A program made the position numbers and the translations under genes. This document shows, piece after piece, positions 42,941 through 64,000 of a stretch of 64,000 bases of DNA. The notes beneath the pieces are model-generated. The model ran no database searches. It had not been told where the DNA came from and saw only the letters and a program-made list of their open reading frames with translations. The DNA is from Alphaproteobacteria bacterium (GTDB lineage Bacteria > Pseudomonadota > Alphaproteobacteria > UBA2136 > UBA6156), in the NCBI GenBank assembly GCA_049297695.1, contig JBAQUT010000036.1, forward strand, positions 986-64,985, in the 5' to 3' direction. Within the stretch, counting starts at the first letter, position 1. Each line of letters opens with the position of its first letter.

Positions 42941-43001
42941 TTTTGTTTTATAATATCTTTTCTTGAAAATCCCTCTTCCAAAATTCTCCCTAAAATCTCT
43001 C

Positions 43002-43023: not shown

Positions 43024-43029
43024 TGCTCC

Positions 43030-43068
43030 CTAAAATCGTATAAACCCCCTCTACATCTTTTAGGGGGG
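43030..43068 (-). terminator. putative Rho-independent terminator after umuC
   Basis: CCCCCT...AGGGGG hairpin followed by a T-rich tract on the minus strand. Confidence 0.45.
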
Positions 43069-43081
43069 TGTGGCGTTGCTG

Positions 43082-44341: not shown

Positions 44342-44345
44342 CGCC

Positions 44346-44726: not shown

Positions 44727-45031
44727 GGGTTATTGTTGTATCATTAATCACCCGCGGTCAATCCCCATCTATCTCCTTGACGCTGGGGTTATCCCACTCT
44801 AACTTCACAGTTGGAGAGATAACTCTCTGGGGCATCAAAACCTCACAAGATGGCTGGCACCACCAAAAGAGTTGCTGTTTGTGTATTTAGCACATCCTAA
44901 GTTGCGCTCTATGCGGCTGGGTGGTGGTGCTATGTCCAAGGCGTAAGCTGAAAAGCCCCACGCCGTATCTTGTACGGTTTTGAACACCCAGCCACCTTTA
45001 TCGGGTGGCTTTTGTTTGAAACCAACAAAGG

Positions 45032-45334
45032 ATGCACACCATGAAACCCCTCTCTATTGCTGTTCTATTACTGTTATCGGCTTCCGCCGCCCATGCCGAA
45101 TGGGTGAATGGCTACACTCGCAGCAATGGCACCTACGTTGCCCCACACGCTCGTAGCGCCCCCGATGGCAACCGTTTCAACAACTACTCCACCCAAGGCA
45201 ACACAAACCCCTACACAGGCCAAGCGGGAACCGTGAACCCTTACAGCGCCAACCAAGGCGATGCAGGAAACGGCTTTGGTGGTAGCGGCTTCAACCAACC
45301 CAGCACGCCCCGTGGTTTTGGCGGGTGGAGATAA
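45032..45334 (+). CDS. small secreted Gly/Asn-rich hypothetical protein
   Basis: Signal peptide MKPLSIAVLLLLSASAAHA; 100 aa. Confidence 0.4.
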   Translation: MHTMKPLSIAVLLLLSASAAHAEWVNGYTRSNGTYVAPHARSAPDGNRFNNYSTQGNTNPYTGQAGTVNPYSANQGDAGNGFGGSGFNQPSTPRGFGGWR

Positions 45335-45480
45335 GCCATGCAGCAAGAAGATTCAGCCTCACGCCCTGAAATGGTGATTGTGTTTGGCTTTTTTACCCTC
45401 TGGGGGTTCATCGTTGGGCTGGGGGTGGGGTGGTGGGTTTGGTGTTGACATTGAATACAATGCTCTGGTACACCTGCCAT

Positions 45481-46386
45481 ATGGCCAAGATAGCAATCCA
45501 AAAATCCACTGGTGTTCCTGTGCATGCCCGTGACGCCTCCACAACAGCGTTAGAAAGAGGTTTAAACAGCCCTTTTGACTTTGCCTGTATGGAGTGCGGG
45601 GTAACATTGCGCTGCACGCATTACGCCAAACCGTTTTCGGATAAAGACCATGTGTATTTCGGTGTCTATGGTGACGCCTACAAGCATGAACCTTACTGCA
45701 ATTCAGCATATGGCTCGGAGTCAAATGGAAACACGCATAGCCATGAAGAGTGGGAACAAGATGATGTCGAGGTTGTCTCTCCCCGTGTCATGCAATTTGA
45801 ACCCCAAACAAGAAATTTCCCAGAGACTGACATTTCATCCCGCGAGGTTCGTTTAACAGGGCAACAAAAATCCAGAGAAACCCTCACCGATTTGATATGG
45901 AGAAACGGAACAAGTCTTTCCGCCCTCCGCAAAGCCAATGCCTATCAATTTAGAATTAGCGGCCAGATTTTCTCTATGGCTCAAATCTTTAATTCACCAA
46001 CAACAACTCTCATGAATGGTGTTGATGGTAAATCCTTTAATGGCGGTGTAGCATTTGGCTTAGCTCGGATATATAGCAAACCTGCGCCATCTGACCGAGT
46101 ATCCATCAACTTTATGGAACGGTTTAATCATGACGGAAATCTCATCCCTGTTATGGGCAAACTAGACCTTGATACATTACACCTTAACGACCCTATGAGG
46201 CACTGGATAAGAGATGGAATCCAACAAGGTGGGTTGTATGATATAGCCATTAAATGGCGCGAATCAGCTTTGGAGCGTGCCAAGAGAGACGGAGGAAGAT
46301 GGGAGTTTATGAAGGAATCGCCTCAGCTTTGGTTTACGGACATTGAGAAGATAGCTATCAAAGCAAGTTCTGGTAACGGTCGCTAA
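45481..46386 (+). CDS. hypothetical protein (island cargo, reduced GC) with N-terminal Cys/His cluster
   Basis: FACMECGVTLRCTHY...; no family recognised; the track ORF starts at 45430 and the first ATG is 45481. Confidence 0.45.
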   Translation: MAKIAIQKSTGVPVHARDASTTALERGLNSPFDFACMECGVTLRCTHYAKPFSDKDHVYFGVYGDAYKHEPYCNSAYGSESNGNTHSHEEWEQDDVEVVSPRVMQFEPQTRNFPETDISSREVRLTGQQKSRETLTDLIWRNGTSLSALRKANAYQFRISGQIFSMAQIFNSPTTTLMNGVDGKSFNGGVAFGLARIYSKPAPSDRVSINFMERFNHDGNLIPVMGKLDLDTLHLNDPMRHWIRDGIQQGGLYDIAIKWRESALERAKRDGGRWEFMKESPQLWFTDIEKIAIKASSGNGR

Positions 46387-46625
46387 ACCTCATCCGTAAT
46401 CAACTCCCTCCACACCCTCCAAATCTCTAAGTTTTCTAACGAATACCTCCCATGGATGAGGTTGGCCTTGCTAATCGCCTCCCTCCCAGCCTCGGTTTTA
46501 GGCCCCGTAGCCTTCCCCCCATGCAACCGACAACAGCCATTCCGCATGGCAGGTTGACGGCATAGTAGGCGGGTACGTTTGCAGCGGCACTTGCACTTGG
46601 GCAGGGTATGAATGGGAACGGACAT
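46383..46625 (-). CDS. small Cys-rich zinc-ribbon-like protein with an HGG motif (phage-associated type)
   Basis: CKCRCKRTRLLCRQPAMRNGCCRLHGGKATGPKT. Confidence 0.4.
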   Translation of the reverse strand: MSVPIHTLPKCKCRCKRTRLLCRQPAMRNGCCRLHGGKATGPKTEAGREAISKANLIHGRYSLENLEIWRVWRELITDEV

Positions 46626-46629
46626 GGGG

Positions 46630-47238
46630 TTATTCCTCGGTTTTGGGTTTACTGCCCCCACACCCCGCCACCGCCCCCACCACGGCTTGGCCGCCAGCTT
46701 GCACCTCCACCTTCTCCACCACCACACGCTGGGTGCTTATCCCCGCTTGCCGCATTTGGCGTAGCAAGTCCATTTGCCGCAGCAACACGTTTTGAGCTTT
46801 GTGGGCACGGTTGGTGTAATACCCCGCCACCTCCAAAGTGTTATCATCCAACGAGCGTGCCAGCATCCGCATTGCCACATGGTTGGTCGCCACTATCTGG
46901 GCTGCCAACATGCTTTCCAGTTCGTTTTGCGGAGCCAAACCATAAAGCTGGGCCACGATGTTGTTCACGGCATTGGCATCTTTGCTTGGCAAAATGGATT
47001 GCAGGTGGGTCAGCTTCACGTTGATGCTCCCCGCATCCAACGTGCCGAACGCTTGCGCCAGCGTGAACGTGGTTTGAGGTTCGTTCATCACGATGTGCAT
47101 CGAACGATTGCCATCGCCCGTATCTTCCAGCGCAAACTCTTTGCGGTTCTTGTAATCCTCCAGCTTGGCGTTCAACACGGCCCGCTTTTCGGGGGTCAGT
47201 TCAAGTGTCCCTTTGGGTTTGGGGGTGAGGTCGGTCAT
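46630..47238 (-). CDS. hypothetical protein (island)
   Basis: 202-aa ORF downstream of the AAA_25 gene. Confidence 0.4.
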   Translation of the reverse strand: MTDLTPKPKGTLELTPEKRAVLNAKLEDYKNRKEFALEDTGDGNRSMHIVMNEPQTTFTLAQAFGTLDAGSINVKLTHLQSILPSKDANAVNNIVAQLYGLAPQNELESMLAAQIVATNHVAMRMLARSLDDNTLEVAGYYTNRAHKAQNVLLRQMDLLRQMRQAGISTQRVVVEKVEVQAGGQAVVGAVAGCGGSKPKTEE

Positions 47239-47304
47239 GATTTTAGCTTTCGTTAGGTGTTCGTTCGTTCGGTTTCCTAGGAGTGCCGAACGCCGAACGG
47301 GTTA

Positions 47305-48228
47305 TTAGGCGGCTTCAGATTCATTTACCCATGTGTTGATGGTGGATGGGCTGGCCTTCAGTTGGCGGGCAATCTCACGCTGCCCCACACCTTGTTCATG
47401 CAGCACAATCGCTTGTTGCCGCCGTGGGTCAACTTTGCGCCCGCCTGTGTAGGGTTCGTGGTGCCAGATAGCGCCTTGGTCGGTCATCATAAGCCGTACC
47501 AAGGTGGGTTTTGATTCCTTGCCTTGCAGGTGGCGTTTCTTGTCAAAGTTCACCACAAAGTGGCTCCCTTCATCGGGTTCAGGCCCCGCAGGTTCGTACA
47601 ACTCAATGGTGATATCGTTCACCACGTTGTGTTGGCTGCTCCCCCGTTGGTCGCCCCCTTTACCAGCATGGTGCAAAATCAGAATAGCCATGCCGCTGGA
47701 ACGTAACGCCATCAACCAGCTTTGCACGTTATCCCATGTGCCCGAATCATTCTCTCGCATGTTGCTGAACAACGTGCTTTTGTTGTCCAGTACCAGCAAG
47801 TCACAGCCCACGTCATCCACGCGGCACATCAGCTCTTGCTGCCCTTCTTCCGTGTTCAGGTGCTTAATGCGGAACGGGCTTTCACATTGTGCCATGCTGT
47901 AAACAAACAGGTTACCGTGGGTGCCCTGTTTGCCTGTCATGGCATCCAGCCGCCGCATCAGCTCTTGGGAGGGCATTTCGCCATCCACATACACCACACG
48001 GGCTTGGCGGGCAGGGGTGAACCCCAAAAAGGGTTCTCCCCGCGCCAACGCAACCGAGAGGCCCAGCGCAAAGTTGCTTTTTCCAATCCCCGCCTTCGCA
48101 TAAAGCATGTTGATACTGTTGGTCAGCAACCACGGGGGCATGAGTACCTCCCGTGGTGGCAGTTCCAACGCCTGAAAGTCCTCGGCGGCAAAAAAGCCCC
48201 AAGGTGCGTTCGTAAGAGGATGGGTCAT
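47305..48228 (-). CDS. RecA-like NTPase (AAA_25 / RepA-DnaB-like replicative loader family) with C-terminal HTH
   Basis: AKAGIGKSNFAL Walker A; VLDNKSTLF; C-terminal HEQGVGQREIARQLKASPSTINTWV HTH. Confidence 0.6.
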   Translation of the reverse strand: MTHPLTNAPWGFFAAEDFQALELPPREVLMPPWLLTNSINMLYAKAGIGKSNFALGLSVALARGEPFLGFTPARQARVVYVDGEMPSQELMRRLDAMTGKQGTHGNLFVYSMAQCESPFRIKHLNTEEGQQELMCRVDDVGCDLLVLDNKSTLFSNMRENDSGTWDNVQSWLMALRSSGMAILILHHAGKGGDQRGSSQHNVVNDITIELYEPAGPEPDEGSHFVVNFDKKRHLQGKESKPTLVRLMMTDQGAIWHHEPYTGGRKVDPRRQQAIVLHEQGVGQREIARQLKASPSTINTWVNESEAA

Positions 48229-48647
48229 CGCACCACCTCCTCATGCACAATGCAATCAAGTGACCATATGCGAATGTAAGGCGCACCAGTCGGCGGTGTA
48301 ATGAGTTTGATGCGGAAATTGAACCCATACTCACGAAGCCTATCAAAAGCCCCCCAAAACCACTTAGGCGGCTTAGTTTGGGTGCTGAAGTGGCCAAAGC
48401 GTAGCATCTCCAGCGCCCTCACCTCAAAACCGTGAGGAGTCGCCAGTTTGGGCACCATTCCTTTACCCCGCTTCCGCCAAACATACCCATGCGGCAGCGG
48501 ATTTTGGTTGAACCACGGCAACGGTTGGGTTACTTTCCGATTGTTAGCCTTAGTTTTAGATTTGTTTAAAACCTCACGCTCGCCCTTGTAAGCACGTGGG
48601 GTTTTTTGTTTAGCGGCCATCGGTGTTACCCTCCCCTTGCTGGCCAT
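48225..48647 (-). CDS. hypothetical protein (possibly N-terminal partner of the replicase)
   Basis: 140-aa basic ORF overlapping the AAA_25 start by 4 nt. Confidence 0.35.
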   Translation of the reverse strand: MASKGRVTPMAAKQKTPRAYKGEREVLNKSKTKANNRKVTQPLPWFNQNPLPHGYVWRKRGKGMVPKLATPHGFEVRALEMLRFGHFSTQTKPPKWFWGAFDRLREYGFNFRIKLITPPTGAPYIRIWSLDCIVHEEVVR

Positions 48648-48864
48648 CTAGCCAAGCAAAAAACTTGGGTTCATCAATGTAAAGGCGCTTGCCAATCCTC
48701 ACCACGGCAATATCAAGGCCATTGCCTTTAACGGGGCCAACGCTGGAATGTCTGTCTTTGGCTTTCCACAAAAGGTTGCGCATTACGGAGGGCGGAAACG
48801 CGGGATTGCGTTCGGCGAATTTGTCCAGCGTCAGAATCAGCCGCTGGGGTGTTTCATTTGTCAT
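48610..48864 (-). CDS. AlpA/excisionase-family HTH (HTH_17) DNA-binding protein
   Basis: VVRIGKRLYIDEPKFFAWLDG resembles AlpA/Xis C-terminus. Confidence 0.55.
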   Translation of the reverse strand: MTNETPQRLILTLDKFAERNPAFPPSVMRNLLWKAKDRHSSVGPVKGNGLDIAVVRIGKRLYIDEPKFFAWLDGQQGEGNTDGR

Positions 48865-48981
48865 AGGTTTTATTCCTATCAGTTACCGCTAGGCCCCTGC
48901 ATCAATACTTGAGCATTCGCTAGCGTTGATAGGATTAGAACATGAGTTTATCTATATGAAAAGTAACGAGTATTTGCAAAG

Positions 48982-49872
48982 TCATTCACTTTGCAAACTT
49001 TTAATTACTTCGGTTACTAATCTCAACGATGGAGAACCATCTCCCATAGCTTTCATTGTTAACTTTGCAAGATTGTTTCTTGAAAAATTGGGATTTCGAT
49101 TCATAATGGGAATTGCAAAACTCTTAATAAGTTCATTTCTAGCTTTTGCTTGTTCTTTATTTTTAGTTAATCCCTTGCCCTGTCCTTTTGTGATTTTATA
49201 TCCCATTGTACCAAACATTCCTTGGGTCAAAAGATAATCCCCGCGCTTCATAGCAATGTTAAAATCATAATTTAGCCATTGATTTATTTGTCTTAAATCT
49301 CGTAAGTCTACAAGGTCAAGATTCCTACATCTTCCAATTTCTATCTCATCAGGGGATTCTGAGTAGTGAGACTGTTCAAGAATTTCTGAGTATTCACCGC
49401 ATCCAATCCATGAATGCATCCTTTCAGGTGCATAGTACTCTCCAACTCTTATTAATTTATCAATGTAGAGAAGATAGAGTGGATTCTCATAAATAAATTC
49501 ATGGGGCATTGGATATTCAGTTTTTAGGTAATTTTTGTAAAGCTCATACCTAATTACTTCTAATCCAGGGTGTATTAAAGGATGAGCTTTAAGCTGTTCA
49601 ATAATCCACGGTTCATTGTGACAATGCAGTAATTGAAAATCACGTTGCCGCTGACGTTCAATGTACTCTTTATTTAGACGTTCAATTTCATATTCAACAA
49701 TCCTACAGGGATAAGGTATGGTTGATTGTTTTAGTAAATCCTTTAGTAAGCTTTCACTATAGGGCACAGCCTCTATATCATTTAATCTTGAAATATGTCC
49801 TAAATCATATGGGGTCGCATATTCAATTTCATGAATTTTACAATCAAGAAGCTTAAAGTAGTGAGGTATCAC
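48982..49872 (-). CDS. hypothetical protein, strongly low-GC (~35%) cargo next to the integrase
   Basis: 296-aa ORF; no recognisable family; 4-bp overlap with the int stop. Confidence 0.5.
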   Translation of the reverse strand: MIPHYFKLLDCKIHEIEYATPYDLGHISRLNDIEAVPYSESLLKDLLKQSTIPYPCRIVEYEIERLNKEYIERQRQRDFQLLHCHNEPWIIEQLKAHPLIHPGLEVIRYELYKNYLKTEYPMPHEFIYENPLYLLYIDKLIRVGEYYAPERMHSWIGCGEYSEILEQSHYSESPDEIEIGRCRNLDLVDLRDLRQINQWLNYDFNIAMKRGDYLLTQGMFGTMGYKITKGQGKGLTKNKEQAKARNELIKSFAIPIMNRNPNFSRNNLAKLTMKAMGDGSPSLRLVTEVIKSLQSE

Positions 49873-50942
49873 CCAAACACCCTCTCCGTCATTTTGCTCA
49901 CCACTTCAACCGCGTGGTTATCGGCAAGGTGGGCATAGCGTTTCACCATTTGGATGCTGCGGTGGCCCAGAATGGCGGACAGCACGGGCAGGGTAACGCC
50001 TGATTCCAACAGGTAGGTGGCGGCGGTGTGGCGGAGGTCGTGGAAACGGAAGTCCTCTATTTTGGCTTCTTTGAGTGCGGCCTCCCAATGATTGGCTGGG
50101 TCAAGTGGAGCCATACCATCGGCACGGGGGAAGATGAGGTCGGTGTTCAAGCGCCTTACCTTGCTGGCTTCCTGCAAAACTCTATGCGCCAAGCCTGTCA
50201 GGGGTACGGAGCGTTTATCGCCGTTCTTACTATCTTCCACCCGTATCACCTGCCGCGTAAAATCCACATCCCGCCAGCGGAGGTTTAAGAGTTCACCCTT
50301 ACGCATCCCCGTACAAATAGCCATGACAACAAGGGGGTAAAGGAGCGGATGTCGGCCCTCCGCCTTACAGGCTTCCAACAGGGCTTTGCGTTCATCGGCG
50401 GAGAGATAGCGCACGCGGGCGTTGTTGGGTTCCAGCTTTCTTACTTCATTCAAAGGATTAAGGCGAATCCAGTTCAACTCCTTGTGGGCATACGCTAAGG
50501 CGGCGGAAAGGGCTATGAGGTAATGGTTGACGGTGGCGGCCTTGATACGTTGGGCATCCTTGACGTTCCGCCATGTCTTTTGCATGAGTTCCCGCTTGTA
50601 GGTGTTGATTTTGTCGGCGGTAATGTCGATGAGGTATTTATCCCCCAGCCGCTCCTTCCACCACATAAGTTGCTTTTCACGTTGGGCGTACTGATAAGCC
50701 CCCACAGTGTGTTTATAGTTGATAAGGTAATCGGTAATGGTTTCATGAAGGGTACGGACAGCGGCCTCATGGTTTTCAAACTTCAAACCGCGCTTGATGT
50801 CCGCTTCCTCTTTTTGTACCCAATCCTTGGCATCGGAGAGGCGTTCAAATGAGGCGCTTTTGGGTTTATGGCCCTTTAGTCTTATTTTTGCCCGATATGT
50901 TGGGACACCGTTCCGCCCTTTACGCTTTTCAATAACCGCCAT
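49869..50942 (-). CDS. int: tyrosine-type site-specific integrase (P4-like)
   Basis: N-terminal arm-binding region MAVIEKRKGRNGVPTYRAKIR; catalytic HDLRHT...LGH...Y (KRYAHL). Confidence 0.85.
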   Translation of the reverse strand: MAVIEKRKGRNGVPTYRAKIRLKGHKPKSASFERLSDAKDWVQKEEADIKRGLKFENHEAAVRTLHETITDYLINYKHTVGAYQYAQREKQLMWWKERLGDKYLIDITADKINTYKRELMQKTWRNVKDAQRIKAATVNHYLIALSAALAYAHKELNWIRLNPLNEVRKLEPNNARVRYLSADERKALLEACKAEGRHPLLYPLVVMAICTGMRKGELLNLRWRDVDFTRQVIRVEDSKNGDKRSVPLTGLAHRVLQEASKVRRLNTDLIFPRADGMAPLDPANHWEAALKEAKIEDFRFHDLRHTAATYLLESGVTLPVLSAILGHRSIQMVKRYAHLADNHAVEVVSKMTERVFG

Positions 50943-50976
50943 TTTTCATACCCATCTTAGATTCTAGCTATTCCCA

Positions 50977-50998
50977 TTTGGGACACTCTTGGGACATT
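50977..50998. repeat. 22-bp direct repeat TTTGGGACACTCTTGGGACATT (copy 2, between int and attR)
   Basis: Identical to 43002-43023. Confidence 0.6.
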
Positions 50999-51115
50999 AG
51001 AGCATAGTAAGTAGGAATAATCCAGCGGAGGCTAAAGCAAGGTGATTCGTTATTATTCAAATGGATGATTACTTTTGTTACTTTCCTATTATTCCCATTT
51101 ATACCGCTGGTCAAA

Positions 51116-52817: not shown

Positions 52818-52891
52818 GTTGGGTATATGGGTTGGTTATATTGGTTTACAACCCCCTTGCCCCTCAAGCGCGTGCGGGGTACACAGGGGGT

Positions 52892-53467
52892 ATGGACGAT
52901 GTTTTAACCATCCGCACCGAAACCACCCCCAACCCCAACAGCCTGAAATATCAGGTGGGGCGGCTGCTCATCCCCGGCGGCAGCGCCAACTTCCCCACGC
53001 GGGAGAGTGCCGCCGAGCGCAGTCCCTTGGCCCGCCGTATGTTTGCCGTAGAAGGCGTGGTAGGGGTGTTTGTGGGGAGCGATTTTTTTACCATCACTCG
53101 GGAGGAGGGGATCACGTGGGGGGCTATCAACGCCCAACTGGCCCCCGCGCTGGAAGCCTTTTTTGACGCGGGCGAGCCTGTACTGCAAGGCAAAGCGCCT
53201 GCCGAAGCCCCGCTGTTGGGCGATACGGATGCTGACCCTGCCACGGTAGCAAAAATTCAAGAGCTGCTGGATACCCGCATCCGCCCCGCCGTGGCGAATG
53301 ATGGCGGGGATATCGTGTATCGTGGCTTCCAAAACGGCATTGTGTTTTTGGAAATGCACGGCGCCTGCAGCAGCTGCCCTAGCAGCACCGCCACGTTGAA
53401 AGTGGGGATTGAAACCATGTTGCGGAAAGAACTGCCCGACGTGGTGCGCGAAGTGCAGGCCGTGTAA
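52892..53467 (+). CDS. Nfu/NifU-family Fe-S cluster assembly scaffold protein
   Basis: Nfu_N (MDDVLTIRTETTPNPNSLKY) plus NifU C-domain with HGACSSCP (CxxC). Confidence 0.7.
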   Translation: MDDVLTIRTETTPNPNSLKYQVGRLLIPGGSANFPTRESAAERSPLARRMFAVEGVVGVFVGSDFFTITREEGITWGAINAQLAPALEAFFDAGEPVLQGKAPAEAPLLGDTDADPATVAKIQELLDTRIRPAVANDGGDIVYRGFQNGIVFLEMHGACSSCPSSTATLKVGIETMLRKELPDVVREVQAV

Positions 53468-54425: not shown

Positions 54426-54439
54426 TTGATGTTCATCAA
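54426..54439 (+). promoter_or_regulatory. FNR/Anr-type box TTGAT-GTTC-ATCAA upstream of ompW
   Basis: Perfect inverted repeat centred ~61 bp before the ompW ATG. Confidence 0.5.
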
Positions 54440-54493: not shown

Positions 54494-55114
54494 ATGCGTA
54501 CCGTAGCCGCCACCCTCACCCTTGTAGCCCTGCTGGCCACTGCCGCCCATGCCGAAGACGGCAACTGGATGGTGCGCGGCCGCGTGATTAATGTGGCGCC
54601 CTCCAACAACGGTGGCGATGCCAGCATCGGTGGCAAGCCCCATGCCGATAACAGCTTTGCACCGGAAGTGGACGTAACCTACTTTGCCACGCCCAACATC
54701 GGTTTTGAGGTGATTGCCGCCACCACCAAGCACGACACCAAAGTAAACAAAAAACCCACCGAAACCGACCTTGGCAGCGTGTGGGTGTTACCCCCAACCT
54801 TAACCGCCCAATACCACGTGACCGAAGCCTGCTTGGGTAACTTTAAGCCTTACGTGGGCGCGGGCGTAACCTATGCTCACTTTTACAACGCCGAGCACCG
54901 TAATGCGCCTGGCATTAACAGCGTGAAGTACGACGATGCCTTTGGCCCCGCGTTGCAAGCTGGCGTGGATTACAAAATAAGCGACAACATGTACCTCAAC
55001 GCCGATGTGAAAAAGCTGTACATCTCTACCGACGTGAAGGTGAACGACACGATTACGGCCAAAGCCAACTTGCAGCCCTGGGTGATGGGTGTGGGTGTAG
55101 GCTACCGCTTCTAA
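54494..55114 (+). CDS. ompW: outer membrane protein OmpW
   Basis: AAGGAG RBS; signal peptide; C-terminal ...GVGVGYRF. Confidence 0.8.
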   Translation: MRTVAATLTLVALLATAAHAEDGNWMVRGRVINVAPSNNGGDASIGGKPHADNSFAPEVDVTYFATPNIGFEVIAATTKHDTKVNKKPTETDLGSVWVLPPTLTAQYHVTEACLGNFKPYVGAGVTYAHFYNAEHRNAPGINSVKYDDAFGPALQAGVDYKISDNMYLNADVKKLYISTDVKVNDTITAKANLQPWVMGVGVGYRF

Positions 55115-55138: not shown

Positions 55139-55160
55139 GGGCCGCATTGCGGCCTTTTGT
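55139..55160. terminator. Rho-independent terminator between convergent ompW and the fnr-like gene
   Basis: GGCCGC ATT GCGGCC TTTT. Confidence 0.6.
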
Positions 55161-55183: not shown

Positions 55184-55930
55184 TTACACCCGCGCTTTGG
55201 CACACCCTTGCTGGCACGGGAACGTACCGCTGCACGCGCTGCAGGTGTGGGTGGTAAGGCTGGCCACGCTGGGGATGGTGATGCTGGCGCCACGCACATC
55301 CAACCCGATGTCTTTTTTCAGCGCGGCAAGGGCGCGGCTGAAGGTTTCTGGTTGCATACCCAAGCGGGCGGCCAGAAGGGTTTTATCAAACGGCAAATGA
55401 AGCGTAACGGTACCCGTGCTGGCTTGGAGATGGTGGGGAATAAGCCGCAGCAAAAAGCACCCCAACCGTTGCGGCGCTTTTTGCAAGGTGCGGCCCTCCA
55501 GTTCGGTTTCCAGCCAGGTTTGGGTGGTGGCCATATCCCGTAAAAACGCCATGGCCAAGTGGGGGCGACGGTCCAAAAGTTCGGTGAGGCGGGTTGCCGT
55601 AATCAGGAGATATTCGGCGTCTTCTGCCACTGTGGCGGTGCTGGTGTGGGTGAGCCCGCCAAATAAATCTTGCAGGCCAATCAGACGGCCGGTGGTCAGC
55701 ACATCCAGCACGGCCTCCGCCCCATCCAGCGTGCTGCGGGAGAGCTTCACCCATCCACCCAGAAGCAGTAGAACATAGGTCACGTTGTCGCCGTGGTTGA
55801 ACAGAATATCGCCTTTGGCACCTGTTTTGCGAGAAGTAGCGCTGGCCAAGGCGGCCAAATCGTCATGCTCCATGGCATCCAACGGGGGAGAAAGACGCAA
55901 CGCGAAGGAAAGGGGGCTGAACATGGTCAT
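55184..55930 (-). CDS. Crp/Fnr-family transcriptional regulator with C-terminal Cys cluster
   Basis: cNMP-binding fold plus HTH; C-terminal HTCSACSGTFPCQQGC. The track ORF start at 56050 overlaps ccoS; ATG 55930 (MTMFSPL) taken as the start. Confidence 0.75.
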   Translation of the reverse strand: MTMFSPLSFALRLSPPLDAMEHDDLAALASATSRKTGAKGDILFNHGDNVTYVLLLLGGWVKLSRSTLDGAEAVLDVLTTGRLIGLQDLFGGLTHTSTATVAEDAEYLLITATRLTELLDRRPHLAMAFLRDMATTQTWLETELEGRTLQKAPQRLGCFLLRLIPHHLQASTGTVTLHLPFDKTLLAARLGMQPETFSRALAALKKDIGLDVRGASITIPSVASLTTHTCSACSGTFPCQQGCAKARV

Positions 55931-55934
55931 ACCC

Positions 55935-56105
55935 CTATTTACCCCGTTTGCGGGGGGATGGCGAGGGGGTGTCGTCGTCCAGAATGCGGGCGGCGGCACC
56001 CTCCAAATCGTCAAACTGGCCGTTGCCGAGCGCCCACAGGAAGGCCACAAGCCCTAAAAGACCCAGAAACATGGCAATGGGGATGAGAAACACCAGAGCG
56101 TCCAT
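55935..56105 (-). CDS. ccoS: cbb3 oxidase maturation protein CcoS/FixS
   Basis: Hand translation MDALVFLIPIAMFLGLLGLVAFLWALGNGQFDDLEGAAARIL...; 56 aa. Confidence 0.6.
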   Translation of the reverse strand: MDALVFLIPIAMFLGLLGLVAFLWALGNGQFDDLEGAAARILDDDTPSPSPRKRGK

Positions 56106-56108
56106 GGG

Positions 56109-58262
56109 TTAACCTTTCCCCAAGCGGGCGGCGTTGGCAACCACCAGAATGCTGCTGGTGCTCATCAGCACGGCGGCCCAAATGGGGGTAATAAAGCCTG
56201 CCATAGCCAAAGGCACCGCCACCACGTTGTAAGCCAGCGAAACCCCCACGTTGCCCCGTACGCCGGTGCGGGCCGTGCAGGCCATGCGGAGGAGGAGGGG
56301 GAGGGCGGTGAGGGATTCGTTGTGGAGGATGATATCGGCCGAGAGTTTGGCCAAATCGGTGGCCTTGCCAAAGCTAACCCCCACAGGGGCCAAGGCAATG
56401 CTGGGGGCGTCGTTCAGGCCATCGCCCACCATCATCAGGTTGGGGCTGGTGGTGGCAAGGCGTGCCAGCATGGACTGTTTGGCGGCAGGTGTGGCGTGGC
56501 CCGTGGCGTGGGGGATTCCCACATGGGCGGCCATGGCGGCGGCGGCGGCGGGGGTATCGCCCGACAGCAGGTGGAGTGCCATGCCCATGGAAGTGAGGGT
56601 GGAGATGGTGGCGGCGGCTTCGGGGCGGAGGGTATCTTTCAGCACCAGCAGCACGGGTTTGGCGGTGCCGGTTTTGAGGTACAACGCGGCTTCTCCCACG
56701 GCCAGTGTGGGGGTGGTTGTAAGGCCGCAAAACGCGGCGCTGCCAAGGCGGACGGGTTGGCTTTGATAGGTGCCTTGCACGCCTTGGCCCACCACTTCGC
56801 GCGCGTGGGGCAAGGGTTTGGCGGCAGGGAGCGAGGCGGTAATCCCTTGGGCCAAGGGGTGGCGGCTGATAACGGCCAGACGCGCTGCCAAGGTCCGTTG
56901 GGCGGGGGTTCCGCCTCGCACAAGGTGTAGGCGGCCGGTGGTGAGGGTTCCGGTTTTATCCAGCACGATGGTACGGGTGTGGGCTAGTTTTTCCAGTGCT
57001 TCGCCGTTTTTTAAAATAATGCCACGCTTGAGAAGGTTCCCCACCACGGCCACTTGCACGGTGGGCACGGCCAAGGCCAAGGCGCAGGGGCAGGTGACAA
57101 TCAGCACGGCGGCGGCGCGGAGCAGGCTTTCGTGCCAATTGAGCCCCACTAGCAACCAGCCTGCAAGGGTGAACAACGCCAGGGTGTGCACCACGGGGGC
57201 GTAGATGCGGGCAATTTTATCGGCGAGGCGCGTGTAACGGTTTTTAACATGGGTGGCGGCTTCGGTCAGACGGGCCAGTTCGGCTAGCACGGTGGATTGC
57301 CCCACGGCGGTGGCACGCACGTGCAAGGTGGGGCCGGTGTTAACAAGCCCTGCCTGAACGGCATCGCCCACCGTGGCGGCGCGGGGCAGGCTTTCGCCCG
57401 TCAGCACGCTGGCATCCACCGTGCCGTGGCCGTGGGATATGGTGCCATCCACCCCCAACCGTTCGCCGTGCCTCCACAGCACGGTGGCGCCCACGGGCAC
57501 GGCGTTGGCTGCAAGGGTGTGCACCTTGCCTCCCTTGCCCAGCACGGCCACGGTGGTGTGTTGCAGGCCCATAAGGTGTGCGGCGGCGTTGTGGCTTTGG
57601 CCGCGCACGCGGGCCTCCAAGTATCTGCCCGCCAGCAAAAAGAACAGCAGCATGACGGCGCTTTCAAAATACGTTTCGCCGTGGCCCAGAATGGTATCGA
57701 ACAAGCTGAGGCTGGTGGTAAGAATGAGGGCGATGCTGATGGGCACTTCCATGCTGGTACGCCCGTGGGAGAGGGCCTGCCACGCCGCCCGGAAATACGG
57801 TTGCCCAGCGTAGGCAATGGCGGGCAGGGTGATGATGGCCGAAAACCATTGCAGCAACAGGCGTTGGGCGGTGGGCATGGGGCCGCTCCACAAAGCGACT
57901 GATAGCAACATGACGTTCATGCTGGCAAACCCTGCCACGGCCAAGCAGCGGAGCAGCCAGCGCTCGTGGGTGGTGGTGGTGGCATCCAGCGTTTGGGGGG
58001 TGTAGGGGGTAAGGGAATATCCAGCCTTGGCGCTGGCGGAGGCGGCCTTCACCATAACGCTAAGCGGCCCCTGCCACGAAACCACAACGCGCTTGGTGGT
58101 AAGGTTGACGCGGGCCGAGGTGATGCCGGGGATGGCGCTTAATGCCCGTTCCACCCGACCCATGCAGGCGGCGCAATGGATGCCATCCACCAAAAACGCG
58201 GCGGACGATTGGCCGTTGGGTGCGGTGGTAACGTAAGGTTTGAGATCATGCACCGAGAGCAT
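56109..58262 (-). CDS. ccoI: copper-translocating P1B-type ATPase CcoI/FixI
   Basis: N-terminal HMA domain (GIHCAACMGRV), CPC, DKTGTLT. Confidence 0.85.
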   Translation of the reverse strand: MLSVHDLKPYVTTAPNGQSSAAFLVDGIHCAACMGRVERALSAIPGITSARVNLTTKRVVVSWQGPLSVMVKAASASAKAGYSLTPYTPQTLDATTTTHERWLLRCLAVAGFASMNVMLLSVALWSGPMPTAQRLLLQWFSAIITLPAIAYAGQPYFRAAWQALSHGRTSMEVPISIALILTTSLSLFDTILGHGETYFESAVMLLFFLLAGRYLEARVRGQSHNAAAHLMGLQHTTVAVLGKGGKVHTLAANAVPVGATVLWRHGERLGVDGTISHGHGTVDASVLTGESLPRAATVGDAVQAGLVNTGPTLHVRATAVGQSTVLAELARLTEAATHVKNRYTRLADKIARIYAPVVHTLALFTLAGWLLVGLNWHESLLRAAAVLIVTCPCALALAVPTVQVAVVGNLLKRGIILKNGEALEKLAHTRTIVLDKTGTLTTGRLHLVRGGTPAQRTLAARLAVISRHPLAQGITASLPAAKPLPHAREVVGQGVQGTYQSQPVRLGSAAFCGLTTTPTLAVGEAALYLKTGTAKPVLLVLKDTLRPEAAATISTLTSMGMALHLLSGDTPAAAAAMAAHVGIPHATGHATPAAKQSMLARLATTSPNLMMVGDGLNDAPSIALAPVGVSFGKATDLAKLSADIILHNESLTALPLLLRMACTARTGVRGNVGVSLAYNVVAVPLAMAGFITPIWAAVLMSTSSILVVANAARLGKG

Positions 58263-58263
58263 G

Positions 58264-58743
58264 TTACGGCACCATCACCCGTTCGGTGGCGTGGAAGGTG
58301 TTGGGGCCGTGCTGCACGGTAAGCGTAACATCCCATGGGCCGCTGCGGGGCCATGGGGTGGCTACGGTGTAGGTGCCGGCGGTAGCTTCGGTGAGCGTGA
58401 AGGTTTGGGCGGGGGCATCGTTCAACGGGCGTTGTACGGTGGCGGTAACGGTGGCGCCTGAAAGGGGGTTCGTTTGGGCATCGGCCAAGGTGTAGGTTAA
58501 CGAAGCTGGAAAAGTGTGGGTGGCCCGCACCAAGGCCCAACCAAGGTGCTGCTGGGTGGCTTGGGCGGCAAGCTGGGTGTTGTAGGCCAAGCCGTCTTCA
58601 TACGCTGTGGGGCTTACCACGCCACGGCTGCTGGTAACGGCCAGATAGGCCATGAAGATATTCACCCCCAGCACCACGGCAAACACGGCCAGAAGCAGAA
58701 ACAGTGTTTTGCGGGCCCAGAGGCGGTTGGTGTCGGATGTCAT
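58264..58743 (-). CDS. ccoH: FixH/CcoH family protein
   Basis: 159 aa, N-terminal TM, position between ccoG and ccoI. Confidence 0.7.
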   Translation of the reverse strand: MTSDTNRLWARKTLFLLLAVFAVVLGVNIFMAYLAVTSSRGVVSPTAYEDGLAYNTQLAAQATQQHLGWALVRATHTFPASLTYTLADAQTNPLSGATVTATVQRPLNDAPAQTFTLTEATAGTYTVATPWPRSGPWDVTLTVQHGPNTFHATERVMVP

Positions 58744-58752
58744 GGGGTTACC

Positions 58753-60204
58753 TTACTCCCGTTCGGGTGCGATGAAAACCGTGGTGTAGGTTTCGGTGCC
58801 ACCTGTGCCGCTTAAGGTGAAGGTAACCGGGGTGTGGCTTTGGGCAAACACCGTGGGCGAGACAGTGGCAAACACCGTAAACTCGGCCACTTTGCCGGGG
58901 TTGATGGTGAGAGAGAGGGCTCCGTTGGAATGAGGCTGAACATCTGCCGTGCGGAGGTGCAAAGGCAGCGTGCTGGTAAGGGTGTAAGTGGCGGGTTGCC
59001 ATGTTTTGTTACCCACGCGCACGGTGTAGGTGTTGCGGATGTCGTGGTTGGAGAGATTCACAAACAACGGGTTGCGCTGGTGCAGCATGGAGAGGGTAAC
59101 CAACGGACGGTGCGTAAGGCTGTACAGCATGGTAACGCTGACAACGGCCATGATGCTGGCATATATGACGGTGCGGGGGCGCACAAACCGGCCTGCCTTC
59201 CACGTGCCCCACCAGCCGATGTTGGCGGGGATGGTGTTGTTGAGGGTGTTGTAACGGATGAGCCCTGCCGGTTTGCCCAGCTTGGTCATAACCGTGGCGC
59301 AGGCGTCCACGCACAGGCCGCAATTGATGCAGCGGTATTGCTGGCCGTCGCGGATGTCGATACCCGTGGGGCATACGGCAATGCAGCGCCCGCAATCCAC
59401 GCAATCGCCATGGCTGGCGCCTTTGCCACGGGGTTCGCCGCGTTGGGAATCATACGTGACCAACATGCTCTCTTCATCAAACATGGCGCCTTGGAAACGG
59501 GCGTAGGGGCACATGTAGGTGCACACTTGTTCCCGCGCAAAGCCAGCCATGACGTACGTGCTGAAGGTGAGGAACACCATCCAGAACGTGGGGATGAAAT
59601 CAAACTGCCCGTGCAGCATGTTGCTCCACAGCGTGGGGGCATCGTGGAAGTAAAACACCCAGGCCCCGCCCGTGGCGAGGCCGATGAGAATCCATGACAC
59701 ATGCTTGGCGGATTTGCGCCAGAGTTTATTGAAACTCCATGGTGCGTTGTTGAGCTTCACTTGGGCGTTGCGGTCGCCTTCAAAAAAACGCTCAACATGG
59801 AGGAATAAATCAGTCCACACCGTTTGCGGGCAAGCATAGCCGCACCATACGCGGCCAAACAGGGTGGTGGCGAAAAACAGGCCAAGGGCGCCCAGCAGTA
59901 AAAGGCCGGTAAAGTAAAACACTTCTTGGGGCCAAACCTCGATGAAGAAAAAGTAAAACTTCCGTTCCATTACATCCACCAAAATAGCTTGGTTGGGGGC
60001 GCCAACGCCGCGCTCCCAGCGTACCCAGGGCATGAGGTAGTAAATGCCCAACAACAGGGCCATCACGGCCCATTTGGTGCGGCGGAAGGTGCCATCCACC
60101 TTGGCGGGATAGATGGATTTACGGGCTTCAAACAGCCCCATCAACCCTACCTTGTCGGTATCCACGGGGGGTGGGGCTTCGGGGAGGATTTCAATATGGG
60201 GCAC
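58753..60204 (-). CDS. ccoG: cbb3 oxidase accessory ferredoxin CcoG/FixG (4Fe-4S)
   Basis: CxxCxxCxxxCP motifs (CVDCGRCIAVCP, CINCGLCVDAC); 5 TM. Confidence 0.85.
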   Translation of the reverse strand: MPHIEILPEAPPPVDTDKVGLMGLFEARKSIYPAKVDGTFRRTKWAVMALLLGIYYLMPWVRWERGVGAPNQAILVDVMERKFYFFFIEVWPQEVFYFTGLLLLGALGLFFATTLFGRVWCGYACPQTVWTDLFLHVERFFEGDRNAQVKLNNAPWSFNKLWRKSAKHVSWILIGLATGGAWVFYFHDAPTLWSNMLHGQFDFIPTFWMVFLTFSTYVMAGFAREQVCTYMCPYARFQGAMFDEESMLVTYDSQRGEPRGKGASHGDCVDCGRCIAVCPTGIDIRDGQQYRCINCGLCVDACATVMTKLGKPAGLIRYNTLNNTIPANIGWWGTWKAGRFVRPRTVIYASIMAVVSVTMLYSLTHRPLVTLSMLHQRNPLFVNLSNHDIRNTYTVRVGNKTWQPATYTLTSTLPLHLRTADVQPHSNGALSLTINPGKVAEFTVFATVSPTVFAQSHTPVTFTLSGTGGTETYTTVFIAPERE

Positions 60205-60222
60205 GGGCGTTGCTTGCGGTGG

Positions 60223-61173
60223 TTACTGGGCCGTAGGCTCGGTAGGGGATGGAACGGTTGCAGAGGCATCCACAACCATGGGGGCTGCAACAGCTTCGGC
60301 TTCGCCACCACCCAAACCGTGCACGTACACGGCCAGTTTTTTGATGTCGGTGGGGGTGAGTTTTGGGCCCCAGGCAGGCATCACGCCGGCACGGCCGTTG
60401 GCAATCACATCCATACGGTCGGCTGTGGTGTTTCCGTACTGCCAGATGGCGTTGTTGAGGGGCGGGGCACCCATGTCGCGGTTGCCTTCGCCATTGTTCC
60501 CGTGGCAGCTGGTGCAGTTTTCGGCAAACACCGTGGCACCGCGTTGGGTGGATTCGTTGGCGGCATAGCCGTACGCCAAGGTGGCAAGGTAGTTGGCGAC
60601 GTCTTGGATTTGGTCGTGCGTGAGAACCTCGTCTTTTCCAAACGCCAACATGTTGCCGGGGTTGCGGGCTTCGGCATCGGTGGTGTTGCGCACGCCGTGG
60701 GTGATGGTGAAGGCAATGGCGGAGAGGCTGCCACCGTGGATCCATTCGTCATCCAACAGGTTGGGGTAACCTTTGACGCCCGCACCGCCGCTGCCGTGAC
60801 ATTGGCTGCAATGCATGGCAAACAAAGCCTTACCTGCGGCGGTGGCGTAGGTATTAAGGTTGGGGTCTTTTTGGATATCCAACACGTCGGTTTGGGCGAT
60901 GCTGGCATCCAACCCCGCTTTGCCTTCTTGGCCTGCGGCCAGTTCGGAGTTCAACATTTTGAGAGAAGTCCAGCCAGACGTGCCTTCTTTCCCACCGGGA
61001 ATGGCTGGGTAGTAAATTACATAACCAATGGCAAAAACGATGCACAGCATAAACACCCATACCCACCAGCGGGGAAGGGGGTTGTTGTACTCTTGGATGC
61101 CATCCCAGCTATGGCCAGTTGTGGAGGCGTTGCCTTGTTTGTCTTTGGTTTGATTGTCGATCCGGCGGTTCAT
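60223..61173 (-). CDS. ccoP: cbb3-type cytochrome c oxidase subunit III (diheme) CcoP
   Basis: Two CxxCH motifs (CSQCHG, CTSCHG). Confidence 0.85.
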   Translation of the reverse strand: MNRRIDNQTKDKQGNASTTGHSWDGIQEYNNPLPRWWVWVFMLCIVFAIGYVIYYPAIPGGKEGTSGWTSLKMLNSELAAGQEGKAGLDASIAQTDVLDIQKDPNLNTYATAAGKALFAMHCSQCHGSGGAGVKGYPNLLDDEWIHGGSLSAIAFTITHGVRNTTDAEARNPGNMLAFGKDEVLTHDQIQDVANYLATLAYGYAANESTQRGATVFAENCTSCHGNNGEGNRDMGAPPLNNAIWQYGNTTADRMDVIANGRAGVMPAWGPKLTPTDIKKLAVYVHGLGGGEAEAVAAPMVVDASATVPSPTEPTAQ

Positions 61174-61177
61174 GAGA

Positions 61178-61348
61178 TTAGTCCTTCAACATTTTACGGG
61201 CTTGGTCTTGGTAGTATGATTTGGCACCGGGGCGGTAGACCCACAGGGTAACGGCGATAAAAATACCACCAAAAATCACCAACCCGATGGCCGAACACAC
61301 GGCCTTAACGGTGGCAAAGTCGTATCCGGCAAGCAGGGAGGCGATCAT
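61178..61348 (-). CDS. ccoQ: cbb3 oxidase small subunit CcoQ
   Basis: Hand translation [56 protein letters not shown]; ATGA overlap with ccoO. Confidence 0.55.
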   Translation of the reverse strand: MIASLLAGYDFATVKAVCSAIGLVIFGGIFIAVTLWVYRPGAKSYYQDQARKMLKD

Positions 61349-62067
61349 CAGCGGGCCTCCGGTGTGTAGGTGGTAAAGTCGACCAACGTGCCCAGCATTT
61401 GCAGGTAGGCAATCAAGGCGTCCATTTCGGTCAGTTTGGCGGGGTTGCCATCAAACTCGGCCACCACGGCTTTGGGGTAACGGGCGGTCACGCCCTCGGC
61501 CACGCCGCTTTCATTCGCTTGGTCTTTCATATCTTGGGCGGCAAATTCAATCTGTTCATCCGTGTAGGGCACGCCCACCATGCGGAGGGTTTTCAGGTGG
61601 TCGGCAATGTTGGGGATGTCCAGCGCGTTGTCGGCCAAAAAGGCGTAGCGGGGCATCACGCTTTCGGGCACCACGGCGCGGGGGTTCATCATGTGCTCTG
61701 TGTGCCATGCGTTGCTGTAGCGGCCGCCCACGCGGGCCAAATCCGGCCCTGTGCGTTTGCTGCCCCATTGGAAGGGGTGGTCGTACATGCTTTCGGCCGC
61801 CAAGCTGTAATGGCCGTAGCGCTCCACTTCATCGCGGAAGGGGCGTATCATTTGGCTGTGGCAGGTGTAGCAGCCTTCGCGGATGTAAATGTTGCGGCCT
61901 GCCAGCTCTAGCGGGCTGTAGGGGCGCATGCCTTGAACCTTTTCAATGGTGCTTTCCACCACGAACAGGGGCACAATTTCCACCAAGCCGCCAATGGCCA
62001 CCGTGATGAGGCTCCCCACCAGCAACAGCAGGGCGTTTTTCTCAAAAAATTTATGGAGTTTGAGCAT
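61348..62067 (-). CDS. ccoO: cbb3 oxidase monoheme subunit II CcoO
   Basis: CYTCHS heme motif; N-terminal TM. Confidence 0.85.
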
Positions 62068-62078
62068 GGTGTTTCTCC

Positions 62079-63584
62079 TTATACCTTGGCGGTTTTCATA
62101 AAGTCGGGCACGGCGGTGGTGGGAGGCGTGGCCCGGGGGCTACCCACGGGGCGTTCCTTCCGCACGTTGCCTCGGATGGTTTGGTACACGTTCCATACCA
62201 TGAAGAAGGTGCCGAGCAGGAACACAAACCCGCCCAAGGCCCGTATCAGGTAGTACGGGTGCATTTGTTCCACCGTTTCGGCAAAGCTGTAGGTAAGGAA
62301 GCCGTACTCGTTGTACGCCCGCCACATAAGCCCTTGCATGATGCCTGACACCCACATGGCGCAGATGTACAGGATGATGCCGATGGTGCTGGTCCAGAAA
62401 TGCCAGTTGATCAGCTGGTACGAGTACATGCGTTCGCGCTTCCACAGCACGGGTACAAGGTAATAAATGCAGCTGAAGCTAATGAGCGCCACCCAGCCCA
62501 AGGCACCGCTGTGCACGTGGCCGATGGTCCAATCGGTGTAGTGGCTAAGCCCGTTGACGCTTTTGATGCTCATCATGGGGCCTTCAAAGGTGCTCATGCC
62601 GTAGAACGAGAGAGACGTAATCATCAGGCGGAGCACGGGGTCGTACCGTAGGCGTTCCCACGCGCCGGAAAGGGTCATGATGCCGTTGATCATCCCGCCC
62701 CAGCTGGGCATCCACAGCATGATGCTGAACACCATGCCGAGGGTTTGAGCCCAATCCGGCAAGGCCGTGTAGTGCAAGTGGTGGGGGCCGGCCCAGATGT
62801 ACAAAAAGATAAGTGCCCAAAAGTGGATGATGGACAGGCGGTAGCTGTAAACCGGCTTGCCGATATGCTTGGGCACAAAGTAGTACATCATGGCCAAAAA
62901 TCCAGCGGTGAGGAAAAAGCCCACGGCATTGTGGCCGTACCACCATTGGATGAGGGCATCCTGCACACCCGCATATGCCCCGTAGCTTTTGGCGCCGAGG
63001 AAACCGACGGGAACAGCCGCGTTGTTCACCAAGTGCAGCATGGCCACGGTAACAATGAAAGCCAGATAAAACCAGTTGGCCACGTAAATATGGGGCTCTT
63101 GGCGTTTGAGCAACGTGCCGAGGAATACCAGCAAGTAGGCTACCCACACCACGGTGAGCCATAAATCGACATACCATTCGGGCTCGGCATATTCCCGTCC
63201 TTGGGTAACGCCTAAAATGTAGCCAGTTGCGGCGAGTAAGATGAACACTTGGTAACCAATCATCACAAACCATGGCAGCCAAGGGTCTCCAAACAACCGC
63301 GCGCGGCAGGTACGCTGCACCACGTAAAAGCTGGTAGCCAGCAAGGTTGTACCGCCAAAGGCAAACACCACGCCGCTGGTGTGCAGGGGGCGCAGGCGGC
63401 CAAAGCTTACATATTCTTGCAGCCATGTAGGCAAAAAGGTGAGCATGTCGGGGTAGGCCAGTTGCAGGGCAATCAGCAACCCTACGGTCATCCCCACAAT
63501 AGCCCAAAACAAGGCCATAACCGAGCCGAATTTCACAATATCTTCGTTGTACAATGGGTGGGGGGCGTTGGCGGGGGTAGCCAT
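62079..63584 (-). CDS. ccoN: cbb3 oxidase catalytic subunit I CcoN
   Basis: 501 aa; 12-TM heme-copper oxidase fold. Confidence 0.9.
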
Positions 63585-63644: not shown

Positions 63645-63658
63645 TTGATGTATGTCAA
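63645..63658. promoter_or_regulatory. FNR-like box TTGAT-GTAT-GTCAA upstream of ccoN (one mismatch)
   Basis: Centred ~67 bp before the ccoN ATG. Confidence 0.45.
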
Positions 63659-63726: not shown

Positions 63727-63740
63727 TTGATGTGGATCAA
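63727..63740. promoter_or_regulatory. perfect FNR/Anr box TTGAT-GTGG-ATCAA in the ccoN / aer-like divergent intergenic region
   Basis: Centred ~42 bp before the aer-like ATG and ~150 bp upstream of ccoN. Confidence 0.55.
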
Positions 63741-63775: not shown

Positions 63776-64000
63776 ATGAGACAACAACAACGCCTCATCA
63801 TGAACCGGAAAGCCGATGTAACCCTGACCGGGGTGGAACGCATGTTCGGGAAGGATGAGATTATCGTCACCAAGACCGATTTAAAAGGGCATATCACCTA
63901 CGCCAACCGGTTGTTTTGCCAGTTGGCGGGGTATTCCGAGCAACAGTTGATAGGCGCACCCCACTGCGTGATACGCCACCCCAACATGCCCAAGTGCGTG
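63776..64000 (+). CDS. PAS-domain aerotaxis-receptor-like protein (Aer N-terminus), partial, runs off the window end
   Basis: ERMFGKDEIIVTKTDLKGHITYANRLFCQLAGYSEQQLIGAPHCVIRHPNMPK matches the Aer-type PAS fold. Confidence 0.6.
   Translation, partial: MRQQQRLIMNRKADVTLTGVERMFGKDEIIVTKTDLKGHITYANRLFCQLAGYSEQQLIGAPHCVIRHPNMPKCV

Follow-up and report, generated by a model that had tools for sequence, protein, structure and literature searches.

Reviews describe the FNR sensors of Gram-negative bacteria as proteins with an N-terminal cluster and a dimerisation switch, and the Bacillus-type sensors as proteins with a C-terminal cluster, held by three cysteines and one aspartate, whose oligomeric state is unchanged. 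A structural review of 2026 still places the cluster of Gram-negatives at the N-terminus and that of Gram-positives at the C-terminus (PMC12937710). In Fnr of Bacillus subtilis and Bacillus cereus, the [4Fe-4S] cluster is bound via C227, C230, and C235 together with Asp141 (PMC3520743, PMC12937710). The cluster of B. subtilis Fnr is required for DNA binding, and not for dimerisation. In the literature that we searched, C-terminal clusters were found for Bacillus-type Fnr only. We describe herein a Crp/Fnr-family regulator gene that lies directly behind ccoS in a 64-kb stretch of contig JBAQUT010000036.1 (the window), from an alphaproteobacterium. The cysteines of its product are placed at the C-terminus, and the best reading of this protein is that of a C-terminally ligated redox or O2 sensor.

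Conserved cysteines of the regulator family

In the database, the regulator is labelled [quoted passage not shown], where MAG stands for metagenome-assembled genome. Its 248 residues contain the two parts that define the superfamily, a beta-roll domain of the cyclic nucleotide-binding type (cNMP_binding, PF00027, residues 38-121, E = 1e-14) and a Crp-type helix-turn-helix (HTH_Crp_2, PF13545, residues 154-225, E = 2e-11). The AlphaFold2 (AF2) model, with an overall predicted local distance difference test (pLDDT) score of 93.1, matches many Crp/Fnr structures in Foldseek with probability 1.00. Both results bear out the family identity given in the initial annotation. The translation ends in ...HTCSACSGTFPCQQGCAKARV before the stop codon (the same end: ...SLTTHTCSACSGTFPCQQGCAKARV), with the spacing C230-x2-C233-x5-C239-x3-C243. 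Since HTH_Crp_2 ends at residue 225, this run of cysteines lies C-terminal to the helix-turn-helix, at the extreme end of the protein. Residues 1-157 contain no cysteine, and hence there is none among the first 40. On both points the translation agrees with what had been annotated. The tail is modelled confidently, with a pLDDT of 84 over residues 231-240, and disorder is predicted for residues 244-248.

A search of 5.8 billion proteins listed 200 homologs, all with generic annotation only, of which 117 were full-length and were used for counts. Apart from a 100%-identical copy of 246 residues (P0001), the closest listed homolog has 72% identity. A tail motif of the form Y-x-C-x-x-C-S-x-x-[FY]-P-C is nearly universal among the homologs; the pattern CxxCx5C was found in 116 of the 117, and the stricter CxxCSxx[FYW]PC in 110. 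The prospect, raised in the initial annotation, that close homologs might be devoid of the cysteine tail was thus not borne out. A cysteine of the C158 type is equally frequent (116/117). In an alignment of 51 sequences with 37-71% identity (A1), the invariant residues include C158, C230, C233, P238, and C239, and S234 is conserved in at least 90%, while the N-terminal domain of the family contains no conserved cysteine. C158 is part of the segment QR[IL]GCFLL, which sits in helix 152-163 of the AF2 model, i.e., the first helix of the DNA-binding domain (alphaD). A cysteine at the spacing of C243, three residues after the third tail cysteine, is kept in only 7 of the 117 homologs, and any cysteine within eight residues past the third one in 23. 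Because C243 is so poorly conserved, a ligand set made up of the four tail cysteines alone was rejected. As judged from the alignments, the conserved four-cysteine set is C158 plus C230, C233, and C239. The notion of a C-terminally ligated cluster is therefore retained as far as the conserved C-terminal motif is concerned, but its fourth cysteine is C158 and not C243.

To define how the two elements are distributed, a profile search was run against 1.84 billion cluster representatives (clusters at 50% identity), which gave 1190 matches at E <= 1e-30; 119 single-domain proteins among the best 150 of these, all metagenomic, were compared. C158 and a CxxCx4-6C tail occurred together in 89 of the 119, C158 with a variant or truncated tail in 14, and neither element in 16, while a tail without C158 was not seen in this set (Fisher's exact test, p = 5e-12, uncorrected for phylogeny). 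A paralog at locus L018, which lies beside a family member, likewise has neither the alphaD cysteine nor the tail motif, and one at L062 has both a cysteine in alphaD and a cysteine-rich tail of its own. Such co-occurrence, paralogs included, is the pattern expected if C158 and the tail form one site.

Several further architectures were noted among the representatives. Sister proteins without C158 and the CxxC tail (P0346, P0365, P0383, P0386, and P0388) often have a single cysteine at the C230 position, where the last helix ends in R-x-F-C; this may represent an ancestral single-cysteine state. In representatives of 480-530 aa (P0264, P0297, P0347, P0349, P0352, and others), the Crp/Fnr module of the family is C-terminal and is preceded by a further ~260 aa that make up the N-terminal half, and very long ones (P0286, P0296, P0300, and P0311) contain several copies of the N-terminal domain.

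Comparison with FNR, Bacillus Fnr, and other subfamilies

The sequence of Escherichia coli FNR used for reference (P0121, confirmed in the database) has cysteines at positions 16, 20, 23, 29, and 122, in agreement with the four positions (20/23/29/122) that had been cited for comparison. Its motif C20-Q-D-C23-S24-I-S-Q-L-C29 and the regulator's C230-S-A-C233-S234-G-T-F-P-C239 have equal spacing and share the same serine. In FNR of E. coli and Aliivibrio fischeri one remote cysteine (C122) is added to the motif, as C158 is in the regulator. The likeness extends to the recognition helix, where E195, S198, and R199, all invariant in A1 and the residues by which FNR-type helices recognise TTGAT, align with E209, S212, and R213 of E. 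coli FNR, to the boxes of the form TTGAT-N4-ATCAA, and to the genes under control, which in both cases include those for high-affinity oxidases and targets of the ompW type, although for the regulator this control is predicted. The model matches holo-FNR with a TM-score of 0.80. Nonetheless, the two proteins differ in that the cysteine motif lies at opposite ends (N-terminal in FNR, C-terminal in the regulator) and in that the remote cysteine belongs to the sensory domain of FNR but to the DNA-binding domain of the regulator, and a dimerisation switch of the FNR type is not to be assumed for the latter. Overall identity to E. coli FNR is 27% (E = 1e-13), and the score against the NCBIfam Fnr model (NF008365) is 42.4 bits, below the cut-off of 228. 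Of the features that mark the E. coli type, the regulator and the loci of its family thus have the E-x2-SR helix and the TTGAT-N4-ATCAA boxes, and the regulator lacks the N-terminal cysteine cluster (C20, C23, C29) with C122.

The reference for B. subtilis Fnr was the database protein P0137; the invariant residues of its family include D141, C227, C230, and C235. The two families align with a probability of 99.2 in a profile-profile comparison (hhalign), in which C230 and C233 of the regulator fall on C227 and C230 of B. subtilis Fnr, directly past the last helix. Both have the Crp/Fnr fold and no N-terminal cysteines, and both place three cysteines in an extension immediately behind the final helix of the DNA-binding domain. 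In both, moreover, the fourth ligand, which in the regulator is a proposed one, comes from the hinge/alphaD region and not from the tail. They differ in the distance between the second and third cysteines (x5 in the regulator vs. x4), in the recognition helix (an FNR-like PETFSR vs. RESxNR), and in the host, an alphaproteobacterium as against a Gram-positive bacterium; C158 aligns with S153 of B. subtilis Fnr. With 23% identity to B. subtilis Fnr (E = 2e-10), vs. 27% to E. coli FNR, the regulator is, on sequence grounds, outside the Bacillus Fnr family. The present family is predicted to resemble both Bacillus Fnr and FNR in the way it works, and by its sequences is a member of neither.

Among the named NCBIfam families, FtrB scores best, yet far under its cut-offs (79.8 and 55.9 bits for NF006901 and NF050815 vs. 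211 and 300). The nearest solved structure is that of SPOA0323, an uncharacterised protein of Ruegeria (PDB 3fx3 and 3h3z; E = 1.6e-19 in the PDB search, and 2e-19 in Foldseek). The regulator shares with SPOA0323 and with FtrB- and RedB-like proteins a GWVKLFR-T--G-EAV hairpin and a PE--SR helix, whereas SPOA0323 has a glutamate at the C158 position and its BLAST and HMM (hidden Markov model) alignments stop short of the cysteine tail. The signal to which FtrB and RedB respond is not known (PMC9603854). FixK and FixK2 resemble the regulator in having no N-terminal cluster and in controlling fixNOQP/ccoNOQP via TTGA-N6-TCAA boxes, a role that is predicted on the regulator's side; FixK differs in that it has no cysteine cluster and is under FixLJ control, and the regulator scores 25.1 bits against the FixK model (NF050806), vs. 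a cut-off of 300. Pseudomonas aeruginosa DNR (3dkw) is a distant match only (E = 1.2e-11), and proteins of the Dnr and NnrR type are responsive to haem or nitric oxide (NO), free of a cysteine cluster, and linked to nir and nor genes, in contrast to the invariant cysteines and the cco, cyd, and ompW neighbours of the present family. When set against the Fnr, FixK, Dnr, and NnrR subfamilies, a comparison suggested in the initial annotation, the regulator fits none of them, and no NCBIfam cut-off, that of FtrB included, was reached.

Linkage to high-affinity oxidase genes and the proposed function

The ATG of the regulator gene, at 55930, is preceded by a GGGG stretch resembling a Shine-Dalgarno sequence and lies 4 nt past the end of ccoS at 55935, exactly as had been noted. 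As stressed in the initial annotation, the gene closes the cco operon at its 3' end in the window, but this arrangement characterises a small subclade and not the family: direct succession to ccoS was seen in the window, at L001, and for the homologs P0002 (72% identity) and P0003 (53% identity). A scan that covered 185,579 species, with one genome each, yielded 222 relatives, and gene context was taken from the best 80 loci, nearly all of them from MAGs labelled Alphaproteobacteria, Micavibrio, Rhodospirillales, or similar. At ~60 of the 80, the regulator gene is divergent from a DsbD_2-ccoNOQP-ccoGHIS-ompW string; at five, the cco operon and the regulator are separated by ompW; and at L062, the regulator is divergent from ompW-cydAB-cydDC.

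At 72 of 78 loci, the 300 bp upstream of the regulator contain boxes of the form TTGAY-N4-RTCAA, and the same holds for the region upstream of ompW at 49 of 50, against a background rate of 0.055 per 330 bp. In the 400 bp directly before ccoN, perfect FNR boxes are present in only 2 of 64 relatives; there, the DsbD_2 gene precedes ccoN and the boxes are located in the regulator/DsbD_2 intergenic region. In the window itself, eight boxes (TTGAT-N4-ATCAA with at most one mismatch) were observed where 1.1 were expected, and none of 100 shuffles reached eight; the perfect boxes annotated before ccoN and ompW are indeed there (Table 1). Given the conserved synteny and boxes, it is the family as a whole, and not just this genome, that is linked to high-affinity oxidases and FNR-type boxes, and the tie to cco and ompW first proposed for the window holds across the relatives.

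Two other features of these loci were noted. L062 belongs to Micavibrio sp. UBA6139, where a paralog (1597-2379, minus strand) closes the ompW-cydA-cydB-cydDC operon (2722-9765); it has the alphaD cysteine and a different cysteine-rich tail, CGHCTALPGECTGC (CGHCTALPGECTGCRVDTAC), and its place at the end of the cyd operon mirrors that of the window's regulator at the end of the cco operon. The DsbD_2 gene, found at L058 (9102-9833, minus strand) and at the same position in most relatives as the first gene of the cco operon, encodes a membrane protein with an HCxPMCGP motif and is not at that position in the window.

The function that we consider most likely, with a confidence somewhat better than even, is that of an O2-labile Fe-S sensor activating the cbb3 oxidase genes and ompW. 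The regulator would act as a dimeric Crp/Fnr-type activator, binding TTGAY-N4-RTCAA boxes of the FNR/FixK type through its E-x2-SR helix, and its targets would be the cbb3 oxidase operon, ompW, and its own gene. C230, C233, and C239, with C158 brought close to the tail, would most likely ligate an O2-labile [4Fe-4S] cluster. At low O2, this cluster would connect the tail with alphaD and so keep the DNA-binding domain in a binding-competent state; O2 would degrade the cluster and thereby turn the activator off, in line with what is described for B. subtilis Fnr. The metal would thus be iron, the signal O2, and the protein at the boxes the regulator itself and not a paralog. Its translational adjacency to ccoS suggests that the regulator gene is co-transcribed, by read-through, from the ccoN promoter with its FNR boxes, which would amount to positive autoregulation.

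Several observations weigh against this proposal. A Zn(Cys)4 site or a dithiol/disulfide switch would yield the same pattern of conservation. The position of the fourth ligand differs from that in Bacillus Fnr, and since D141 of the latter aligns with G146 of the regulator (His in the consensus), the analogy is not one-to-one. Distant variants with a cysteine tail have no linkage to cco. Furthermore, in some relatives another Crp/Fnr paralog that shares the E-x2-SR helix is encoded within 10 kb, so that the boxes are not assignable to the regulator with certainty. One of the distant variants, P0293 (tail CTKCSGIDKEC; 8001-8768 at L081), lies beside genes for a universal stress protein and a pair of a GAF histidine kinase and a response regulator.

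One alternative, which we regard as unlikely, is a purely structural role of the four invariant cysteines, which as a Zn(Cys)4 site would do no more than stabilise the DNA-binding domain. As in FtrB-like regulators, the activity would then depend on how much protein is present, under a FixLJ/FixK-type cascade or with another FNR at the boxes. FtrB is the top named family and the nearest structure, the Ruegeria homolog, has no cysteine tail; CxxC...C plus a remote cysteine is also a common Zn pattern, and the FNR-type box at the regulator's own promoter could be occupied by another regulator that acts upstream of it. Yet the Fe-S motif of FNR has the same cysteine spacing and serine, the Fe-S site of Bacillus Fnr has the corresponding position, and the linkage is specifically to genes of O2 respiration. 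No FixL, FixJ, or FixK gene was seen within the window, and a phmmer search against its six-frame open reading frames (ORFs) gave no Crp/Fnr paralog. About the same low probability attaches to a metal-free thiol/disulfide switch, in which disulfides between C230 and C233, or between the tail and C158, would inactivate DNA binding, in resemblance to CprK or to the oxidation of Cys183 in FixK2. CxxC is a classic redox-active dithiol, the lone cysteine kept at the C230 position in many sister proteins hints at an older single-cysteine redox role, and CprK offers a precedent, in that disulfide formation inactivates it reversibly (PMC2610375). However, four invariant cysteines, an invariant proline before the last of them, and a conserved serine exceed what a single disulfide needs, and C158 co-occurs strictly with the complete three-cysteine tail.

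The signal might also be something other than O2, the cluster responding to NO or to the general Fe-S or iron status; this we hold to be improbable, slightly more so than the two metal-site and thiol alternatives just discussed. FNR-type clusters react with NO too, as in FnrP (PMC4771820), an Nfu-type scaffold gene lies nearby, and the JGI (Joint Genome Institute) label of some homologs is "dissimilatory nitrate respiration regulator". That label is an automatic annotation, however, and the conserved neighbours are the O2 reductases cbb3 and bd along with ompW, not nor, nir, or hcp. As for a cysteine tail that is a functionless, lineage-specific extension, the predicted disorder of residues 244-248 and the lack of conservation of C243 are the nearest approach to it, and no actual support was found; it is excluded, with very little doubt left, by the conservation of the three-cysteine tail, which 116 of the 117 homologs retain even at identities as low as 37%, as do 89 of the 119 representatives.

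Beyond the proposed function of an O2-labile Fe-S activator, a broader scheme may be offered tentatively, as one that is more apt to fail than to hold. The family would be an independently evolved, "permuted" FNR, in which a C-terminal C-x2-C-S-x4-C motif and the alphaD cysteine hold a cluster that clamps the DNA-binding domain instead of governing dimerisation. In Micavibrio-like bacteria and related uncultured Alphaproteobacteria, at least 222 genomes at the species level, it would be the main O2 sensor and would stand in for a canonical FNR or FixLJ-FixK system, with control over both types of oxidase, cbb3 and bd.

The family, as interpreted here, would break the division into N-terminal clusters in Gram-negatives and C-terminal ones in Gram-positives, being a large Gram-negative family with a proposed C-terminal all-cysteine site, FNR's own spacing, and a proposed fourth ligand within the DNA-binding domain. 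It would provide natural comparisons of how the ligand set and the cluster position relate to O2 sensitivity and how the signal passes to DNA binding, and of whether one solution evolved twice. It would also give a name to the protein that probably regulates the high-affinity oxidases, both in the Micavibrio lineage of predators and in many uncultured Alphaproteobacteria, where members of the family are at present annotated just as "Crp/Fnr family transcriptional regulator". No description of this family or of a Micavibrio Fnr was found in a literature search of incomplete coverage, which makes an earlier description possible, and comparative Crp/Fnr studies do not mention the family.

Other features of the window

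The regulator gene, its conserved codons, and the surrounding genes and boxes are listed in Table 1.

Table 1. Coordinates of the regulator gene and of associated features in the window
Feature	Position	Strand	Basis or remark
Crp/Fnr-family regulator gene	55184..55930	-	248 aa + stop; NCBI MFZ2587204.1
Conserved tail motif codons, C230-S-A-C233-S234-G-T-F-P238-C239 (C-x2-C-S-x4-C)	55214..55243	-	alignment A1 and homolog counts
C158 codon (QRLGCFLL, helix alphaD), proposed fourth ligand	55457..55459	-	invariant in A1
C243 codon, fourth tail cysteine, not conserved	55202..55204	-	homolog counts
E195-T-F-S198-R199 codons, FNR-type E-x2-SR recognition helix	55334..55348	-	invariant in A1
ccoN-O-Q-P-G-H-I-S operon	55935..63584	-	Pfam and ORFs
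ccoN	62079-63584	-	Pfam
ccoO	61348-62067	-	Pfam
ccoQ	61178-61348	-	56-aa ccoQ-sized ORF between ccoO and ccoP
ccoP	60223-61173	-	Pfam
ccoG	58753-60204	-	Pfam
ccoH	58264-58743	-	Pfam
ccoI	56109-58262	-	Pfam
ccoS	55935-56105	-	PF03597 FixS
ompW, convergent with the regulator	54494..55114	+	Pfam OmpW, E = 1.6e-48
GC-rich hairpin in the ompW/regulator intergenic region (genes convergent)	55139..55155	.	likely bidirectional terminator
Perfect FNR box TTGATGTTCATCAA, upstream of ompW	54426..54439	.	centre ~62 nt before ATG at 54494
Perfect FNR box TTGATGTGGATCAA, upstream of ccoN	63727..63740	.	~150 nt before ccoN ATG; intergenic with divergent PAS gene
One-mismatch FNR box TTGACATACATCAA (ccoN strand)	63645..63658	.	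centre ~67 nt before ccoN ATG

Divergent from ccoN, and sharing with it the intergenic region that holds both ccoN boxes, is a truncated gene (63791-64000, plus strand) which runs past the end of the window and encodes an Aer-like PAS N-terminus (...TKTDLKGHITYANRLFCQLAGYSEQQLIGAPHCVIRHPNMP...). The truncation explains why its PAS matches in Pfam are weak. The gene may be co-regulated, its product serving as a receptor in aerotaxis or redox sensing. On the other side, ~1.7 kb off the regulator and before tRNA-Thr and ompW, lies a gene for an Fe-S scaffold of the Nfu/NifU type (52832-53467, plus strand; PF08712 and PF01106). A one-mismatch FNR box, TTGATTTTTATAAA at 34429-34442, is located ~400 bp upstream of a gene for an SCO1/SenC copper chaperone (34826-35467, plus strand). 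SenC-type proteins are tied to cbb3 assembly, and this gene could be a further member of the regulon.

A stretch of low GC content, at ~43000-51000 (0.44 at 48-50 kb vs. ~0.58 elsewhere), contains an integrase-like ORF (49869-50942, minus strand), several orphan ORFs, and UmuC-like (43082-44341) and UmuD-like (44346-44726) ORFs, both on the minus strand. It adjoins tRNA-Val/Tyr (42756-42940) and a transfer-messenger RNA (tmRNA) call (42135-42565). On visual inspection of the translations only, the stretch resembles an integrated mobile element.

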